Positions 7,030 to 16,336 are shown, counted from the first letter of the stretch. The stretch: 16,336 bases of DNA from Candidatus Hermodarchaeota archaeon (GCA_016839365.1 JAEOUH010000085.1:1-16336); one strand, 5' to 3'. Made by a program: numbers and translations. The notes: generated from the letters alone by a model not told the origin.

Positions 7030-7512
7030 ATGCCTGTCGTATACACCTATTGTGAAAAGTGCAAGGCATACATAGCAATAGACGTCTCACCAGATATCAT
7101 CCAACGTCAGAACGTCTTTCCCTTTCCCTACTCCTATGTGCATGGAGACCCTTCGCATGTTATCACAATATACCTAGATCAGGACCTCGTCGAACGTGGT
7201 CATGAAGTATCAGAAATCCATGCAGGCAACGAAGTCGAGGTGCCTCAATCTCAGCCTGGAGCACCACAGCCTACTGCCCCAACAACCAGACAAATGGTCG
7301 GGACGAAAAGCCGTCGAATTGTTCCCCGGGTCGTCGCAGATTTAGAAAAGCAAAAGCTATCAATCACAGAATTCCGAATGCTCAGCTTATGCGATGGAAA
7401 AATAACTCTGCAGGAAATCGCTGAGAAAATGGGCCTACAATTTTTCATTGCCATGCGAATGCTTTTAGACCTCCAGAAGCGTGGGCTTGTAGATTTCGAA
7501 AAACGTTTCTAA
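7030..7512 (+). CDS. Putative Zn-binding (CxxC...H...H) N-terminal domain, P/Q/T-rich linker and C-terminal winged HTH
   Basis: N-domain YCEKC...FPFPYSYVHGDPSHVITIYLD...RGHE; linker PQSQPGAPQPTAPTT; wHTH-like LSLCDGKITLQEIAEKMGL...LLDLQKRGLVDF. Confidence 0.75.
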   Translation: MPVVYTYCEKCKAYIAIDVSPDIIQRQNVFPFPYSYVHGDPSHVITIYLDQDLVERGHEVSEIHAGNEVEVPQSQPGAPQPTAPTTRQMVGTKSRRIVPRVVADLEKQKLSITEFRMLSLCDGKITLQEIAEKMGLQFFIAMRMLLDLQKRGLVDFEKRF

Positions 7513-7578: not shown

Positions 7579-8088
7579 ATGGGTGTCAAAGGTTGGCTCG
7601 GTTGGCACTTCAAAATGCAAAAAACCTCACTGAATGCATTCCAAGCTTTGGTCGCCGCAGTGATCGATGATGTCCTTGAATCCTGTAAGGGCGACGTCAA
7701 CATGGCAAATGAAAAATTATTGCGGTTAGGTAGCGCGATGGCAGAAACTCTCTTGTTCGAATACAGCGATACCATAGGAGAACATGCAACCACCTTCGAT
7801 GGATTCCTCGACACTTTCACACTAGCAACGCGCGTAATGTTAGGGAGAGCCTTTGACAACGCGTTCTACGACAAAGCTGAGAGAAAAATTGTTTACGTCT
7901 TCAACGAGTGCCCCATCTGCGAAAACATTCGAATGTCCGATGAATTCAATGGCTTGAAATACTGCAACATCCTCAGCGGTGTCTTTCAACACGTCCTAAC
8001 GCTCCGCGGTTTCAGCAGCGTCTGTGAAGAAGTCCAATGCAAGACGTGGGGCGCAGATTCTTGTGTGTGGGAGCTACGCGAGGTTTAA
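7579..8088 (+). CDS. Bet3/TRAPPC3-like (V4R-fold) protein with Zn-binding cysteines
   Basis: By eye it is colinear with eukaryotic Bet3 (NEKLLRLG, RVMLG, ECPICENIRMSDEFNGLKYCNILSGVFQHVL). V4R-type Cys pattern: CP..C, YCN, QCKTWGADSC. A GGTGA SD lies just upstream of ATG 7579; an alternative ATG is at 7615. Confidence 0.8.
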   Translation: MGVKGWLGWHFKMQKTSLNAFQALVAAVIDDVLESCKGDVNMANEKLLRLGSAMAETLLFEYSDTIGEHATTFDGFLDTFTLATRVMLGRAFDNAFYDKAERKIVYVFNECPICENIRMSDEFNGLKYCNILSGVFQHVLTLRGFSSVCEEVQCKTWGADSCVWELREV

Positions 8089-9570: not shown

Positions 9571-10503
9571 ATGAGACAGTACATCGGGATGATTGAAATC
9601 CTAGGCGAAGGGGGCGAAATGCAACCGCTCCATTGGAATCCCAAGCATCTAGTAGACGGACGATCAATACTCGTTGTTGACGAGACCGAGGGAATTATCT
9701 GGGTATGGCTAGGACATGGGACAACCATGTTACAGCGGACCACGGCACTGCGGCAAGCCCGCTTTATCATGAAAAATGGCACTCATGTTGGAGAAACCCA
9801 CTTTGGCACAAAATGCACGAATTTCATTGAAGTGCCAGGAGATTTGAATAACCCCAAGGTGACTCTCCTCCATAAGCTCCTTGAAGAGCATCCAAAGACT
9901 TCTGATTATCTTATTATCATTAAGAAAGATGTCGAGGTTTCGACATTTGAAGAATCCTTCCAAGACAAAGTCGAGATCATTGAACAGACAATTGTGCCTG
10001 AACCCATTCGCAAAGTTACCCCGATTCGGCGTCGGATTCTAACATATGAAGAGCAATTAGCAACAAAGGTTCTTTTTGCAGTGTCTGATTGTTATGGACA
10101 AGCAACAATGAACCCACTTGGACCTAGCGAATTTCAGGTTTCGGTCCTCCGTTTGCAATTGCGCTTCATCTGCCAAGGGGACGCAATTCTGTTTTCTGAG
10201 ATAAGAGGGGCAGCTCAAGAAGATATCGATGCGTTTGCTCGTTGCTTTGGACAGCAACCCCAACTTACTTCTGATGGACAACTCTACATTGCTTCCACAC
10301 CACAGGTAGTAGAACCAACAGCATCAACCAATGAGAAGACAGTTTCAGTGGTTGATTCCATGCGTGAACAATTATCCCAAATCAGCCAAAAACCGAAAGA
10401 GGAAGAGAAGCAAGACGTAGAGCCAACCCCAGACGAGAAAGAGGATCCTAAAGAGAATGAAGACGAAAAAAGTGGATCCTCCGAATTCGACCTATTTGTC
10501 TAG
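9571..10503 (+). CDS. Gelsolin-like domain protein, paralog A (gelsolin-like domain, unknown C-terminal domain, acidic tail)
   Basis: Gelsolin-like core LVDGRSILVVDETEGIIWVWLG-x7-RTTALRQARFI. The start is moved from GTG 9559 to ATG 9571 because a GGTGA SD lies at 9558-9562. It is homologous by eye to the ORFs at 12912 and 13845. Confidence 0.7.
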   Translation: MRQYIGMIEILGEGGEMQPLHWNPKHLVDGRSILVVDETEGIIWVWLGHGTTMLQRTTALRQARFIMKNGTHVGETHFGTKCTNFIEVPGDLNNPKVTLLHKLLEEHPKTSDYLIIIKKDVEVSTFEESFQDKVEIIEQTIVPEPIRKVTPIRRRILTYEEQLATKVLFAVSDCYGQATMNPLGPSEFQVSVLRLQLRFICQGDAILFSEIRGAAQEDIDAFARCFGQQPQLTSDGQLYIASTPQVVEPTASTNEKTVSVVDSMREQLSQISQKPKEEEKQDVEPTPDEKEDPKENEDEKSGSSEFDLFV

Positions 10504-10547
10504 CTTCTAACTACACTCCCCTGATTTCTAGAGAGGAGCTTTTCAAA

Positions 10548-11954
10548 TTGGACCTAACCATTCACGGCGCTGGACAAACCGTAACAGGCAGCTTGTTCCA
10601 AATCAAGACAAAAGCCACTAATTTTCTCATTGATTGCGGCCTTTTCCAAGGCAATCCATCAGAGCAGCATAAACGCAACCAAACTTTACCCTTCGATGCA
10701 TCTTCCATCGATTATGTTATTTTATCCCATGCTCATCTTGATCATTGTGGCCGACTACCAATCCTTGTCCGTTCAGGGTTTCATGGACCCATTTACGTAA
10801 CTGCCGCCACCTCTGAACTGTGTGCTCTGCTTCTCAGAGATGTTGCTGAAACCGAAGAGGAAGATGCGGAACGAGCACGTTCAAATAAACAATCCGAGGG
10901 GAGTAACCACACCTATTCAACCAAGCCCTTATTTACAAGGCACGATGCGGAACGCACCATCAAACAGCTGCGGATTGTCAAATATGGAAAGAAGAAATCA
11001 CTATCAGGCAATGTAACCTTTCGCTTTCGAGATGCCGGACATATTCTTGGATCATCGATCATCGAAACCTGGATTGAAGATCGTGGAAAGGTGATTCATC
11101 TTGTTGGCACCGGAGATGTGGGGCGAAAGAATGCTCCGATTATTCGAGATCCTGACCTCCCCTCTGCTGCCACATACCTTCTGTGTGAATCAACTTATGC
11201 AAACCGAGTCCACGAGCCACTTTCAAGAGCCATTCGACGGTTTGAGCGGATCATCATCAAAGCCCACCGTCACCGCAGTCACATTTTGGTGCCAGCGTTT
11301 GCTATTGGTCGTACGCAAGCCCTCATTTATGCTCTTAACTTACTGGTGGAAAATGCACGGGTTCCCGTCATTCCTGTTGCTATTGATTCGCCCTTAGCCA
11401 TCAAAGCAACAAAGATTTTCAAACGCCATAGAGAATGCTTTGATGAGGAAACGTGGGACCTAATTGAATCAGGGGACGCCCCATTAGATTTCAAAGGCAT
11501 ACAATATGTTGAACGTCAATATGACAGCGATAACTTGAGCCAACAACGGGGCCCGATTATGATTGTGGCCGGATCTGGAATGATGAACGGAGGACGTATC
11601 CTCCGACATCTATTCAGGCGAATTGAAAACAAAAACACTCATTTGATGGTGATTGGATTTCAGGCTCCAGGAACCCTTGGTCATCGTATTGTCAATGGAG
11701 CTAGAACAGTCAAAATCTACGGTCGAATAAAGCGGGTGAATGCGCGTGTCGAAAGATTATATGGCTTTTCTGCCCATGCGGATAAGACAGAGTTACACGG
11801 GTTCTTATCGTCGCTTCGAGAAAACCCACCAGAAACAATTTTTTGTGTCCATGGAAGTCCTCCGGCTTGTCAGAGTCTCGCAAATACAGCTAAACGTCTT
11901 GTTAGGTGTCCTGCTGTAGCACCTAGGATAGGGCAGCAGTTCGTGCTAGCCTGA
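10548..11954 (+). CDS. MBL-fold beta-CASP ribonuclease (YSH1/TTHA0252-like, no KH domains)
   Basis: Motifs GAGQTVTGS, IDCGLFQG, SHAHLDHCG (HxHxDH), AGHILGS, TGDVG, ESTY, PAFAIGRTQ, SGMMNGGR, GFQAPGTLG, FSAHAD and VHG. Confidence 0.93.
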   Translation: MDLTIHGAGQTVTGSLFQIKTKATNFLIDCGLFQGNPSEQHKRNQTLPFDASSIDYVILSHAHLDHCGRLPILVRSGFHGPIYVTAATSELCALLLRDVAETEEEDAERARSNKQSEGSNHTYSTKPLFTRHDAERTIKQLRIVKYGKKKSLSGNVTFRFRDAGHILGSSIIETWIEDRGKVIHLVGTGDVGRKNAPIIRDPDLPSAATYLLCESTYANRVHEPLSRAIRRFERIIIKAHRHRSHILVPAFAIGRTQALIYALNLLVENARVPVIPVAIDSPLAIKATKIFKRHRECFDEETWDLIESGDAPLDFKGIQYVERQYDSDNLSQQRGPIMIVAGSGMMNGGRILRHLFRRIENKNTHLMVIGFQAPGTLGHRIVNGARTVKIYGRIKRVNARVERLYGFSAHADKTELHGFLSSLRENPPETIFCVHGSPPACQSLANTAKRLVRCPAVAPRIGQQFVLA

Positions 11955-11961
11955 AAAAAAA
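11954..11961 (-). terminator. Oligo-T (T8) archaeal-type terminator for the minus-strand transcript
   Basis: An A8 run on the + strand lies 5 nt downstream of the minus-strand stop at 11967, between convergent genes. Confidence 0.45.
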
Positions 11962-11966
11962 CTATT

Positions 11967-12209
11967 TCATGCGTGGGTTGAAACCTTTTCCACACGGAGC
12001 CAAGGATTCTGTCGTGTGAATTCGAAAAGCGACTGAGTGAATCGCTCCAGGTCATCGAGTTCGATTACAAAATGGTATCGTCCTTCCCCCAACGGTAATT
12101 TACTGATGATTCGTCCATGCTGGTTGAGGAGGAGATTGATCCAACCGGTTTTCGTCGCTGTTTCCTCTCGATTCATCCCTCTATAGGAAAGCGAAATGTT
12201 TGCTTTCAT
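11967..12209 (-). CDS. Small hypothetical protein, probable ACT/ferredoxin-like (beta-alpha-beta-beta-alpha-beta) fold
   Basis: 80 aa with an alternating strand/helix pattern. It has a strong SD (GGTGAGG, 12217-12223) and its own BRE/TATA-like element upstream. Confidence 0.7.
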   Translation of the reverse strand: MKANISLSYRGMNREETATKTGWINLLLNQHGRIISKLPLGEGRYHFVIELDDLERFTQSLFEFTRQNPWLRVEKVSTHA

Positions 12210-12251
12210 GATGTAGCCTCACCTAGGTGTCATTCTTTGACAAACGAGCCG

Positions 12252-12264
12252 ACTTAAACCTTTC
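12252..12264 (-). promoter_or_regulatory. Archaeal BRE+TATA promoter (GAAAGGTTTAAGT)
   Basis: A purine-rich BRE is followed by TTTAAG, about 45 nt upstream of ATG 12209, with an SD in between. Confidence 0.6.
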
Positions 12265-12296
12265 CAAACAAGCGTCGAATGACCCGATAAGTGTAG

Positions 12297-12884
12297 TCAA
12301 GTCGGATCAGTTCCAGCGTTTGGAAACGATTTGGCGCCAAAATAGTAAGCCAAGGCGTCGTAAGCGATGTCAAAGCACCAAAAACCAATTGTGTGGATAA
12401 ATGTCAGTAAACCAAAAAAAGGGAGAATCACAACGCTAATTTTCAATATAGGACGGTGGAGTAGAACATGGTGTATCGCAGCGATGTGAATCTTAGAAGC
12501 CTGTGCATGAAGCACCTCATCAAGTAGGGAAGCAACGAAGATGGCAATTAGGGTAGGAAGAACCAAGATCAGAATTGCAATATCGAAAAATCGAAAGAGG
12601 CTGAGGGGGAAGACAGCGATTGCGAGGACTATGAAGTAAGTATTATCAATCTTACGCGAAGCAATGAGGCTCAATATAATTCCTAGTGCCAAGACAGCAG
12701 TGTAGACATCAAAGAAGACCCAGATGTTGACTAGAATAATCAGGACAGCTACAACCAACCACAGAAGCGATTTGCGGAATCGAATGCGGCTTGGATCATC
12801 AACGGCTTGATCAACAAGTTTAATGCCTGCCCCAATGAGCGCATAGGATATTATTAGAGCCAAGGCAAAAAGAATTAAGCTCAT
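12297..12884 (-). CDS. Conserved archaeal multi-pass membrane protein of unknown function
   Basis: About 6-7 hydrophobic segments with polar motifs GAGIKLVDQAVDD, KIDN, LLDE, HRPILK and FDIAYD. It starts 27 nt after the paralog B stop. Confidence 0.75.
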   Translation of the reverse strand: MSLILFALALIISYALIGAGIKLVDQAVDDPSRIRFRKSLLWLVVAVLIILVNIWVFFDVYTAVLALGIILSLIASRKIDNTYFIVLAIAVFPLSLFRFFDIAILILVLPTLIAIFVASLLDEVLHAQASKIHIAAIHHVLLHRPILKISVVILPFFGLLTFIHTIGFWCFDIAYDALAYYFGAKSFPNAGTDPT

Positions 12885-12911
12885 ACTCCCAGGCCTTTGC
12901 TTAGTTATTAG

Positions 12912-13628
12912 CTAGCCTGCTAGGCTTTTGAGTTCGTGGGCAACCAGGTCTTTGAGTTCTTTGGGAGTCTTGGGATCCCATTTGAAGGTGAGTCTTCCTT
13001 TGCTGCGCTTCATCTGATGTGTGAGACCGTCGGCGCCTTCAATGAGGAGTTCTTCGGTGTCACCTTTGCTCTTATACTCGATGTGCACTTGTTGATGAAC
13101 ACGTATGATTGCCATCAAAGCAGCTTCTAGGTCAAGTTTGGAAATTTTTCTTGTCGGCGTTGGAGTTGAAGGTATGGTGGGTGTAACAGGAGCAGTGGTT
13201 GAGGTCGGTGCACTACTAGTAACTTGAGCAGCCGGAGCAACTCCTTGAAGATGTCCTATTATAAGTGTGCCTTTGGGGTGTGCCACAGTGGCGATTTCCA
13301 TGGGAGATTCTAACAATGCAACGACATTATTGTAGTTGTTTGAGGTGGTTGGATCATCCATGCTGTCCTGATCAATGGGTACTAATGAGAAGCCACGTCC
13401 CAGCAATTCATCACCAATTCGCTGTCCTTCCAAGGCGATTTCTTCCGCCTTTGCTTTGGCTGTACGACGCTTGTCGTATTGTACGCCGCTACCCATCCAG
13501 AACCAAAGAGCCTTATTTTGTTCATCAACAACAGCGACACAGACATCACCTCGAAGCTTTCGAGCACCAGGGCGAATTGACCGAACAAAACCTAAGCCCC
13601 CAATTTCCAACATTATAACTCGTGTCAT
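12912..13628 (-). CDS. Gelsolin-like domain protein, paralog B
   Basis: Gelsolin-like core LRGDVCVAVVDEQNKALWFWMG-x7-RRTAKAKAEEI, a P/T-rich linker (APTSTTAPVTPTIPSTPTPT) and a C-terminal alpha/beta domain. Confidence 0.72.
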   Translation of the reverse strand: MTRVIMLEIGGLGFVRSIRPGARKLRGDVCVAVVDEQNKALWFWMGSGVQYDKRRTAKAKAEEIALEGQRIGDELLGRGFSLVPIDQDSMDDPTTSNNYNNVVALLESPMEIATVAHPKGTLIIGHLQGVAPAAQVTSSAPTSTTAPVTPTIPSTPTPTRKISKLDLEAALMAIIRVHQQVHIEYKSKGDTEELLIEGADGLTHQMKRSKGRLTFKWDPKTPKELKDLVAHELKSLAG

Positions 13629-13814
13629 GTGCTTAACACCCTAATGGATCCCATTTAGTATGAAACACAGTATTCAGTGGACAAATTCTGACCTCGAAAT
13701 ACTCGCCCAAAGGTTAGTGAGTAAGTGTTTTCTATCAAGGTCTGTTTTAGAATTTGATACTTTATTTATTAAGTTGACCCTAGGGATTGATTGGCAAGAT
13801 AACTGATACAATTC

Positions 13815-13832
13815 CTGCAAAAAGTTTTGCAG
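13815..13832. terminator. Palindrome/hairpin just downstream of paralog C (possible terminator or protein-binding site)
   Basis: CTGCAAAA-ag-TTTTGCAG, 12 nt past the stop at 13845, containing a T5 run on the minus strand. Confidence 0.35.
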
Positions 13833-13844
13833 AGTTTCGTGGGA

Positions 13845-14612
13845 TTAAAGGTCTGCTGAGGCTAGTCGGTCACGAAGCAGCCCTAATATATCGTTGCGTC
13901 TTCCACGAAAGTCGTATCTTTGTAAGAATTGTACTGAGCCCTGACTAACCTCAATTTGGCAGATAATCCCCTCAGGATCTTCAATTGAATACCGAGTGCC
14001 ATTTTCGATTTTTGTTGCACTGACGTAGCACATTGGGAAAAAGTCTAGTATTGATGAGATTAGTATTCCTACACGGATCACTCCGAGATCTTGTAGATCA
14101 CGAGAGGGTTCTGGGGCAACGGTTTCAGTACTTTGCCTAACTGTCACCGTTTCAGTTTCAGCGGGGGTAGGGGGCGTTATTTTTTCTGCAGGAGTGGGCT
14201 TTGGCGCAGGAGCAGCGTGTTCAGGAGCTGGAGTAGGAGTTTCTCCAAATCGACCAAGTACGCCTTCAGTGATTTTGAACCGCTGGCTCAACGTGTGTAC
14301 TAATTGATCATAGAAGCCTTTGATTTCTGGGTCGTCAAGTATTTCCCCATCGATGATTTCTATGTTGGTGACATCCCGTCCAATGCGATAGGGGCCTAGT
14401 TGATAGCCGGCACTGACGAGGGATCGGGCTTTCCGTTGGGCTGCTCGACGTTCAACAAGAGAGGTGGAAGCGCCTTGCCACAACCAGACGCGTTCTTTTA
14501 GCTCGTCAATGGCAATTACAATACGGTCTTCGGTGAGGGCTTCTGTTGATAGGGGTAGGGGTTCAATGATTCCTGAGGAAAATTCAAGGAGCAGCACAAA
14601 TTTGTCCGCCAT
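13845..14612 (-). CDS. Gelsolin-like domain protein, paralog C
   Basis: EPLPLSTEALTEDRIVIAIDELKERVWLWQGASTSLVERRAAQRKARSL closely fits the gelsolin-repeat consensus (hhhD-x-hWhWxG-x7-RxxA). It also has a P/T/A/E-rich linker and a C-terminal alpha/beta domain. Confidence 0.78.
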   Translation of the reverse strand: MADKFVLLLEFSSGIIEPLPLSTEALTEDRIVIAIDELKERVWLWQGASTSLVERRAAQRKARSLVSAGYQLGPYRIGRDVTNIEIIDGEILDDPEIKGFYDQLVHTLSQRFKITEGVLGRFGETPTPAPEHAAPAPKPTPAEKITPPTPAETETVTVRQSTETVAPEPSRDLQDLGVIRVGILISSILDFFPMCYVSATKIENGTRYSIEDPEGIICQIEVSQGSVQFLQRYDFRGRRNDILGLLRDRLASADL

Positions 14613-14669: not shown

Positions 14670-15818
14670 TTATAGGCACAATAAGCTTTCTTGTGGCGGT
14701 GTGGTGACCCTATGCCCTGTTTTGGTTACTGCGACATTGATTTCGCTTCGCACGCCAAACCGTCCTTTGAGGTAAATACCAGGCTCCACCGAAGTGAGAG
14801 TATTCGGCAGTAAGAGTCTGGTTTCAGGCATCTCGTAACTGTCAAGGTTGGCCCCTCTACCGTGGGACCTGATGTCTATGCTATGCCCGGTTCTGTGTAA
14901 GATGGCATGTTCGAAGCCAGCAGCGATCATGATTTTGCGGGCTTGTTCATCGGGGATTCTTGCGGGTATGTTGGGTTCTATTGAAGCCGTAGCTGCATGC
15001 CGGGCTTCAATGATTGTGTCCCAGACTGTCTGAATCTCGTCAGGAGCTTTTGAGCCTGTGTAGGCCATGTGTGTGATATCGGCAAAGATTTCCCATTTTG
15101 CCCATAAATCTATCATGAGTAGCTGGTTCTTTTTGATAGTGACATTTCCGGGGGTGTAGTGAGGATTAGCGGAATTGGCTTGAACCGCTACTATAGGAAC
15201 CTCCATGGAGGTGAGTTCATTTTGTTGAAGTTGTTCCTGCAGATAGTCAACAACTTGACCCTCTGTAACGAACCCCAATCGATCTTTGACATAATCAAAG
15301 GTCTGTTCCATGATATTCGTCAATGTTAAGGCAGCACGATTATGACTGGCTAATTCCTCGTCAGTTAGTACCGAATGAATTATTTGCATTAGATTTTCCC
15401 CTGATTGATACTGCATTCCAGGAAGTGCTTTTCGAAGAGTGGTAAATCGACCTGCAGACAAGACATCTGTCTGGGGGTTTTCGCTGTAATTCAGCGCGAT
15501 GCACTTTAACTCCTTAGTTTTTTGTTTTATCATTTCAAGGAATGAGGACTGGGTTCGCGCGTCGAGGACCTCAAGAGAGGGATGGAGACCAATGAGCTCA
15601 TTGCCTTCAACAGGGGATTTGATGACGATGATAGGGTCAGAATGAGTGATGAATATGGCATATGAACGTGAATGAGGAGCAAGCTCTCCAAGTAGCGCAG
15701 GACCAGTGGGATCGCTTCCTCGAAAGTCGATGATTAACCACGCATCTAAGTTGGATTCTGACATATGTTGTCGAACCAGATGAAGTTTCTCACTCAAGTT
15801 AAGCAGGGGAATTGCCAA
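14670..15818 (-). CDS. M24 family metallopeptidase (Xaa-Pro aminopeptidase-like)
   Basis: Creatinase-like N-domain, NPHY, and metal ligands in IDLW, ADIT, HRTGHSI, SVEPGIY and GVRSE. TTG start with a GGTGA SD. Confidence 0.92.
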   Translation of the reverse strand: MAIPLLNLSEKLHLVRQHMSESNLDAWLIIDFRGSDPTGPALLGELAPHSRSYAIFITHSDPIIVIKSPVEGNELIGLHPSLEVLDARTQSSFLEMIKQKTKELKCIALNYSENPQTDVLSAGRFTTLRKALPGMQYQSGENLMQIIHSVLTDEELASHNRAALTLTNIMEQTFDYVKDRLGFVTEGQVVDYLQEQLQQNELTSMEVPIVAVQANSANPHYTPGNVTIKKNQLLMIDLWAKWEIFADITHMAYTGSKAPDEIQTVWDTIIEARHAATASIEPNIPARIPDEQARKIMIAAGFEHAILHRTGHSIDIRSHGRGANLDSYEMPETRLLLPNTLTSVEPGIYLKGRFGVRSEINVAVTKTGHRVTTPPQESLLCL

Positions 15819-15927
15819 TACTTAATCACCCCATCGAGTTGTCGTCTGAGAGACCAAAAAGATTTAGGCAAAGTGATTCTGAGCTACAACAACTTCGTAG
15901 CATATAATCGATTGTAATGTGGATATT

Positions 15928-16336
15928 ATGGTAGAGGATTCTGCAAGTGAACGAGATGAGTTTGGAGTCATTTTAGAACAGCTACGTAAAACGCAAGCAG
16001 CTATGCGTGTATTAATCCGGGGCATCCGAGATACAAAGAATCAAGCCTGGGAGTGGCGGAAGCGAAGAGACGAATTACGTGCGGAAACCCCTGTGGTACA
16101 CGATGAGCTTTCGAACCGACGGGCGACCAGAGATGAGTTAAACGAAGATGTTCAGCGACAGAAAAAACTCCGCGACGAGGCAAATGAACAGGCTCGTGTA
16201 TTAAATGAACAACTCCAAAAGTTAAGAGAGCAGCGAGGTTCCCACAGAAATATCGTGCCACTAGAGGAGCTGCAGCGTCGATTTCGCGAGTTGGAATGGA
16301 AACAGCAAACCACTTCATTATCAGTGGAAGAAGAGA
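15928..16336 (+). CDS. Archaeal coiled-coil protein (COG1340-like), 3'-truncated; absent from the supplied ORF track
   Basis: Hand translation from ATG 15928 gives MVEDSASERDEF...RRDELR...RDELNEDVQRQKKLRDEANEQ...LEELQRRFRELEWKQQTTSLSVEEE, with no stop before the edge. Repeated RDE motifs and LExxQQTxxLSxEEE are typical of this family. Confidence 0.82.
   Translation, partial: MVEDSASERDEFGVILEQLRKTQAAMRVLIRGIRDTKNQAWEWRKRRDELRAETPVVHDELSNRRATRDELNEDVQRQKKLRDEANEQARVLNEQLQKLREQRGSHRNIVPLEELQRRFRELEWKQQTTSLSVEEE

Follow-up and report, generated by a model that had tools for sequence, protein, structure and literature searches.

Three clustered gelsolin-fold paralogs in a Hermodarchaeota genome and their probable place on a separate Asgard branch of one-gelsolin-domain proteins

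The stretch of DNA studied here, called the window throughout, is contig C67 (JAEOUH010000085.1; 16,336 nucleotides, nt) of GCA_016839365.1, the 2.2-Mb, 84% complete genome of a Candidatus Hermodarchaeota archaeon. Three of its genes, P0001, P0002 and P0003, each encode an N-terminal domain of gelsolin type, a linker, and a C-terminal domain that we call X (Table 1). A preliminary description of the window, made from the nucleotide sequence, had singled out these genes as a cluster of long-diverged paralogs with a linker and a shared C-domain, in an architecture that it took to be undescribed. All three open reading frames (ORFs) are present at the positions it gave, and so are the motifs it quoted: the N-terminal strands IGMIEI, VIMLEI and VLLLEF, the hhDE...WxWxG cores, the RxxAxxxA helix, and the helix caps LNNP, MDDP and LDDP.

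Table 1. Genes and protein regions of the cluster, in order of position in the window (aa, amino acids; pLDDT, predicted local distance difference test score; L027, a locus of a distant relative)
Feature	Position	Strand	Remarks
P0001, 310 aa	9571..10503	+	gelsolin-fold N-domain, short linker, alpha/beta C-domain, conserved helix, acidic tail
P0001 gelsolin-fold domain, residues 1-120	9571..9930	+	AlphaFold pLDDT 77-93
P0001 C-domain, residues 159-240	10045..10290	+	helix, four strands, helix, strand; pLDDT 92-95
P0001 tail	10348..10500	+	helix SVVDSMRxQLSQ (260-271), acidic low-complexity stretch, C-terminal GSS[DE]F[DE]LF
Conserved 80-aa ORF	11967..12209	-	between the beta-CASP gene and the membrane protein gene; 52% identity to same-position ORF in L027
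P0004, 195 aa, polytopic membrane protein	12297..12884	-	27 nt downstream of P0002
P0002, 238 aa	12912..13628	-	gelsolin-like N-domain, Pro/Thr/Ser-rich linker, C-domain
P0002 C-domain, residues 160-238	12915..13151	-	strongly conserved in family; FKWDPKTPK motif
P0002 gelsolin-like domain, residues 1-115	13284..13628	-	hhalign to P0003/P0001 N-domains E 3e-17 / 2e-11
P0003, 255 aa	13845..14612	-	widely distributed Asgard type; gelsolin-fold N-domain, linker, C-domain X
P0003 C-domain X, residues 172-255	13848..14099	-	helix, four-strand antiparallel sheet, helix; pLDDT 89-95
P0003 linker, residues 126-171	14100..14237	-	Pro/Ala/Thr-rich, disordered; pLDDT 30-54
P0003 gelsolin-fold domain, residues 1-125	14238..14612	-	AlphaFold pLDDT 83-94
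M24 (Xaa-Pro type) peptidase	14670..15818	-	constant upstream neighbour of P0003 gene, in this lineage only

The N-terminal 100-120 residues are common to the three proteins, both in pairwise BLASTP comparisons (E 9e-7, 4e-13 and 1e-11) and in hhalign comparisons of the N-domains of the three ortholog families, which give E values of 1.9e-11 to 3.2e-17 over 93-102 columns. Each gene has about 60 ortholog clusters that align with it over the full length, at identities down to ~41-45%. All of these clusters are named "hypothetical," and P0001, P0002 and P0003 themselves find nothing above noise in Pfam and NCBIfam. Each of the paralog families is monophyletic at 98-100% in a tree built by maximum likelihood from 41 gelsolin domains. 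Further, the three genes lie on a single contig wherever the assembly allows in the archaeon's own family (f1), and the gene order is also kept in more distant relatives. Thus, the three genes are long-diverged paralogs, as the preliminary description had it, and they stand in a real and conserved cluster, with significant profile similarity among the N-domains of the three proteins.

The fold of the N-domains was assigned from profile searches and from AlphaFold models of whole P0003 and whole P0001, with P0002 assigned by profile homology. Searched against sequences in the PDB, a profile of the three N-domains matches gelsolin, villin, adseverin, CapG, the two-domain gelsolins (2DGel) of Loki and Heimdall, and Thor ProGel only, with E values from 9e-9 to about 1 (0.021 for 7c2f_B); no Sec23/24 entry is found by the N-domain profile at E <= 10. 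The top Foldseek match of the P0003 model is Thor ProGel (7c2f_B; template-modelling score 0.76 by target, root-mean-square deviation (rmsd) 1.6 Å), and ProGel is also the best match in VIA-align, both for P0003 (7C2F; Z 12.1, rmsd 1.8 Å, 87 of 88 residues aligned) and for P0001 (7c2f_D; Z 13.1, rmsd 1.7 Å, 88/88 aligned). The top structural rows are all of gelsolin type, comprising gelsolin, villin, fragmin, adseverin, severin, Asgard 2DGel, and the gelsolin-like domains of Sec23/24, and proteins with an actin-depolymerising factor homology (ADF-H) domain rank after them, at Z about 5-6.

At the level of sequence, the N-domains keep the D...W...G signature of gelsolin domains, defined by an Asp bonded to a Trp and then a Gly (10.1101/768580). 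The equivalents of D36, W45 and G47 (P0003 numbering) are invariant in P0001, P0002 and P0003, and in an alignment of 30 N-domains W45 and G47 are invariant and D36 nearly so. Behind the long helix, the whole clade carries an additional hairpin with the motif G-[YF]-x-x-G-x-x-x-h-G (strands 70-72 and 75-77), which fits the spread of the 87-88 aligned ProGel residues across ~102-105 residues of the models. On the evidence of the profiles, the models and the retained signature, the N-domains are very diverged domains of the gelsolin fold, with its central sheet flanked by one long and one shorter helix, in line with the gelsolin type first proposed for them.

The linker announced by the preliminary description is present as well: residues 127-170 of P0003 have a pLDDT below 50, and the linker differs in length and sequence among orthologs. 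Less of the claim of a shared C-domain could be upheld. BLASTP detects no similarity among the C-domains of the three proteins, and hhalign comparisons among the three families are not significant (E 0.08-0.7). The P0003-type C-domain aligns across several Asgard families, and a broader profile built from these finds a weak, marginal match to the C-domain of P0002 (E 6e-4 over 54 columns, in register) and no match to that of P0001 (E 0.25). In the models of P0003 and P0001 the C-domain elements, compared by their order, come alike, as a helix, four strands and a helix. A C-domain shared by all three proteins is thus plausible, with the part of the claim that stands, weakly, being the sequence match between P0002 and P0003.

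Relatives of X elsewhere were sought by sequence and by fold. The C-domain profile finds no relative among PDB sequences (best E 0.43), and the fold search gives no clear match, reaching Z 4.6-5.3 at best in whole-protein queries whose rows are mostly filled by the N-domain. The best PDB matches of the P0001 C-domain have Z 4.7-5.1 and those of P0003 Z about 5 or less; the weak look-alikes are the N-domain of spermine synthase, AdoMetDC, frataxin/CyaY, Med17C, and the C-terminal domains (CTDs) of IntS9/11 and CPSF73/100. An exhaustive search of 1.84 billion representative proteins with the X profile returned 71 matches. Most are proteins of 230-340 aa with X at the C-terminus, and most of the proteins of at least 220 aa also match the gelsolin-like N-domain profile. 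X is nearly always combined with this gelsolin domain. In P0209, P0216 and P0239, X stands at the N-terminus instead, followed by a Pro-rich linker and a different domain (P0209 X domain against P0003, E 1.2e-6), which argues that X behaves as an independent module. Large matches to the X profile (P0203, P0223, P0250, and others of 700-2400 aa) were rejected as false positives, consisting of many recurring partial matches; P0203 is built of tandem repeats, and immunoglobulin-like domains are present in P0223.

Two side observations concern these regions. The gene for P0209 (L056 2332-3003), a protein of a ~225-aa type with X N-terminal, follows one for a coiled-coil plus multi-pass membrane protein, and the second domain of this type has a stand-alone 140-aa homolog in the genome of the window (C43:41846-42088; L058 1414-1836, - strand; E 5.6e-11), with no Pfam match. 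The tail of P0001 is disordered in the AlphaFold model, and S259, R265, Q267, L268 and F309 are nearly invariant in the family alignment; as conserved in P0001 orthologs, this tail resembles a short docking motif for some partner.

The genome to which the window belongs also encodes a eukaryote-like actin (382 bits to PF00022) and two shorter actin-like proteins. Alongside these, we found two canonical 2DGel genes and two genes of the published 1DGelX type (one gelsolin domain plus a domain X, discussed below), one on contig C11 (318 aa) and one on contig C7 (287 aa). The C11 protein matches ProGel at E 2e-10 and ~37% identity, as counted on the printed alignment. The actin, actin-like and 2DGel genes mark the genome as Asgard, and near-identical proteins in public records carry the labels Promethearchaeota or Hermodarchaeia. 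An actin system open to regulation by gelsolin domains is therefore present, and with P0001-P0003 the number of gelsolin-type genes in this genome comes to at least seven, which corrects the count for these genomes. The main actin gene (C21:30585-31622; L012 1477-2514) ends at a contig end after 346 of 381 residues; a full-length actin in a genome of the same genus (L041 1495-2640) is 99% identical to it.

The distribution of the three types was determined in a sample of 400 Asgard genomes. The P0003 profile matches 264 of them at E <= 1e-5, although 1DGelX-type genes may account for a few of the weakest matches. Several other families contain full-length matches, at ~1e-35 to 1e-45. Exactly one strong P0003-type copy is present in each of five complete or near-complete genomes from other families, and in 4/5 of these the alignment extends through the C-domain. 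The P0001 type is found in 17 of 18 f1 genomes and in the window's own genome at E <= 1e-30, and the P0002 type in 18/18 and again in the own genome at E <= 1e-28; in the 381 other Asgard genomes neither type has a match at its respective threshold. P0001 and P0002 types are thus found in family f1 only, and always in the same cluster.

In the tree, P0001, P0002 and P0003 group with the single-copy orthologs from other Asgard families, and support of 100/99 splits this group from the 1DGelX-type proteins of C7 and C11 and from both domains of two 2DGels. The order of the duplications is left unsettled by the tree, in which the branch of P0001 is long. As part of the explanation we prefer, the P0003 type (255 aa) is reasonably likely to be the ancestral form, which would have been copied locally into three genes in the archaeon's own family, after which the X domains would have diverged.

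How new these proteins are depends on how they compare with the Asgard gelsolins already published. Among Thor proteins, Akıl et al. (2020; PMC7444086) distinguished three architectures, ProGel, 2DGel and 1DGelX, the last of which consists of one gelsolin domain followed by a domain X, nucleates and severs actin independently of calcium, and has an X that the investigators proposed to bind the side of the filament. The claim that the window proteins have an undescribed architecture must accordingly be given up, because the 1DGelX design, a single gelsolin domain joined to a further domain, was already in print, and no new principle is involved. ProGel itself is the domain alone, of 88-94 aa. 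The window N-domains resemble it as single gelsolin/cofilin-type domains for which it is the best structural match, with the D...W...G signature and a basic long helix. However, they are 15-18% identical to it (structure-based) and have ~17-18 extra residues, including the hairpin, before the linker and second domain. They share with 2DGel and the gelsolin/villin repeats of PF00626 the fold and the core motif, and their profile matches villin, gelsolin and the Loki/Heimdall 2DGels, but they have one repeat, score below the Pfam cut-off, and do not conserve the Glu at the start of the long helix across the clade.

The closest published design is 1DGelX, and one could hold that the window proteins are mere members of that class, with the local triplication as the only novelty. 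The likeness is considerable: one gelsolin domain followed by a non-gelsolin C-terminal domain, with two folded domains and a disordered tether in the models. The class may even have included proteins of this branch already, because Akıl et al. (2022; PMC9433394), who treat 1DGelX as a class, counted two in MK-D1, and in a 4.36-Mb single-contig Loki-like genome we found exactly two genes of this design, a P0003-type one (292-aa frame) and a canonical one (348-aa frame). However, for the 1DGelX that has been characterised, the gelsolin domain is reported to share 35% identity with ProGel and X is predicted to be a coiled coil (PMC7444086), a description that fits the C11 and C7 proteins instead. 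The window N-domains, at 15-18%, lack this closeness to ProGel, and their X is modelled as a small alpha/beta sandwich rather than a coiled coil, the published 1DGelX having been compared by description only. The 1DGelX-type proteins of the same genome are parted from the window proteins by the 100/99 split, and between the window X domains and the C-terminal regions of C7 and C11 no similarity was detectable, the gelsolin core alone aligning. On balance, we consider simple membership of the 1DGelX class unlikely. No paper describing this branch was found in the literature. In relation to published work, with 1DGelX compared by description, what is new is a separate, unannotated Asgard branch of the "one gelsolin domain plus X" design that has its own X domain and is triplicated in one lineage. 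It is a fourth branch beside the studied Asgard types ProGel, 1DGelX and 2DGel, and is not annotated in any family library. Since members were found in about two thirds of the Asgard genomes sampled and have a partner domain of their own, it offers a concrete target for biochemistry.

The explanation that we find rather more convincing than the others, and somewhat likely overall, is that the three genes are paralogs of this distinct branch and that their products are actin regulators in which X provides a second contact. P0001-P0003 would then probably be extra regulators of the archaeal actin skeleton, although we infer the binding of actin. Each protein consists of a single ProGel-like gelsolin-fold domain, a flexible linker (Pro-rich in P0002 and P0003) and an alpha/beta X of ~85 residues, and the fixed cluster of three genes includes a membrane protein. 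The gelsolin domain may bind actin between subdomains 1 and 3, in the same cleft that ProGel and gelsolin G1 occupy, probably without calcium control. The tethered X could then reach the side of the filament, another copy of itself or another partner, and this second contact would turn a weak binder of monomers or filament ends into a severing, capping, bundling or anchoring factor, of which the three paralogs would be specialised versions. A more ambitious version, in which X is a novel module specific to Asgard archaea and links a primitive gelsolin domain with a second target, and in which three diverged X domains yield three differently targeted or mutually associating actin regulators in Hermodarchaeia, one of them maybe tied to the membrane protein as an actin-membrane linker, strikes us as doubtful, to about the same degree as plain 1DGelX membership.

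Several observations weigh against the explanation we prefer. In a scan of the genome with PF00626, P0003 alone of the three proteins scores, at 11.8 bits against a gathering cut-off of 21 bits, and the 2DGel genes of the same genome score 45-53 bits; in a search at E <= 10, none of P0001, P0002 and P0003 matches the family. The shortfall from the cut-off accounts for the "hypothetical" labels. The Asp before strand C and the Glu at the start of the long helix are type II calcium ligands in gelsolin. In the alignment, an acidic residue is kept ahead of the strand. At the helix start, Glu is invariant in the P0003 family (E54), but P0001 has Q and P0002 has K, and most orthologs of other families lack it, with P, D, N or H in its place. 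Sequence comparison gives no support for homology between the X domain of P0001 and those of P0002 and P0003, and X has no recognisable relative, which makes its role a guess. Nor does the gelsolin fold by itself mean that a protein binds actin: the gelsolin-like domains of Sec23/Sec24 are nearly as good a structural match (Z 8.8-9.4).

This last point leads to the main functional rival, in which the gelsolin fold serves as a protein-protein module unrelated to actin, as in the COPII proteins Sec23/Sec24, and the cluster belongs to membrane or trafficking biology. The structural matches invite such a reading (Sec23a at Z 8.8-9.4, Sec24 and the yeast Sec23/24 entries at Z 6.2-7.7), as do the membrane protein within the cluster and the HMG-CoA reductase and V4R/TRAPP(Bet3)-like genes that adjoin it in this lineage. 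In Sec23/Sec24 the gelsolin-like domain sits among zinc finger, trunk, beta-barrel and helical domains, whereas the window proteins, at 238-310 aa, have two small domains, without sequence matches to Sec23/24 or hits to its Pfam families. The best structural match is ProGel, whose structure is actin-bound. The neighbourhood is specific to the lineage, giving way to unrelated housekeeping genes in five genomes of other families, and the membrane protein resembles unnamed proteins from archaeal phyla that have no gelsolins. We rate this rival lower, because the sequence profile finds only the actin-binding relatives, gelsolin, villin and the Asgard gelsolins, with no Sec23/24 at E <= 10, and think it slightly less probable than identity with 1DGelX. 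Equally improbable, in our view, is that the three paralogs form one hetero-oligomer through their X domains, acting as a multivalent actin cross-linker or a membrane-anchored organiser of actin. Such a complex would agree with the persistence of the three genes together on one contig wherever the assemblies of the family allow it. It would also agree with the heterodimerisation domains among the look-alikes of the P0001 X domain (the IntS9/IntS11 and CPSF73/CPSF100 CTDs, Z 4.8-5.1). However, Z of about 5 is within the noise of that structure search, and the gene is single copy in other families, so the ancestral protein works alone or as a homo-oligomer.

The neighbours of the cluster differ in how far they are kept. 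P0004 is probably co-transcribed with P0002, and its position right after P0002 is kept in distant relatives (37% identity in L027); it has no Pfam or NCBIfam match, and its look-alikes are unnamed membrane proteins from other archaeal phyla, which are without gelsolins. The 80-aa ORF, which finds no match above noise in Pfam or NCBIfam, is probably a real gene because of its identity to the ORF at the same position in the distant relative. In GCA_016550415.1, at 52-57% identity, the order is LarA, a winged helix-turn-helix protein, the V4R/TRAPP-like protein, HMG-CoA reductase, P0001, a beta-CASP nuclease, the 80-aa ORF, the membrane protein, P0002, an extra 151-aa helical gene, P0003, and the M24 peptidase. 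On a metagenomic contig that is more distant still, the arrangement is more compact: M24, P0003, a 161-aa gene, P0002, the membrane protein and then, on the opposite strand, P0001. Among the genomes of other families examined, the M24 peptidase gene is not beside the P0003-type gene. The single P0003-type gene there lies amid unrelated housekeeping genes (recurring ones being DNA ligase, an AAA/VWA pair, histidine phosphatase, TrmI and a V-ATPase subunit), and the neighbourhood is therefore little guide to function. A scan for bacterial-type promoters and terminators gave results at the level of shuffled sequence, the bacterial model being unsuited to an archaeon.

Some further observations concern genes around the cluster. 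Upstream of HMG-CoA reductase, positions 7030-7512 (+) encode a 160-aa protein that begins with a Cys-rich segment and has a winged helix at its C-terminus, and positions 7579-8088 (+) a 169-aa protein with a weak V4R match, whose ortholog in L027 has a weak match to the TRAPP (Bet3-like) Pfam family; both genes stand in the same place in the relative, where they are 51% and 66% identical, respectively. The helical gene of 151-161 aa between the P0003 and P0002 orthologs of more distant relatives (L027 10914-11369) corresponds in the window to a gap of merely 216 nt (13629-13844). It has a weak homolog elsewhere in the same genome (C11:8652-9050; E 4e-4, 20% identity over the full length), ~2.3 kb from the 1DGelX-type gene of that contig. 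At the other end of the cluster, positions 15919-16335 (+) encode a DUF7121 coiled-coil protein that runs past the end of the window; its ortholog in L027 is turned the other way with respect to the cluster and is separated from the M24 gene by ~2 kb and two further genes.

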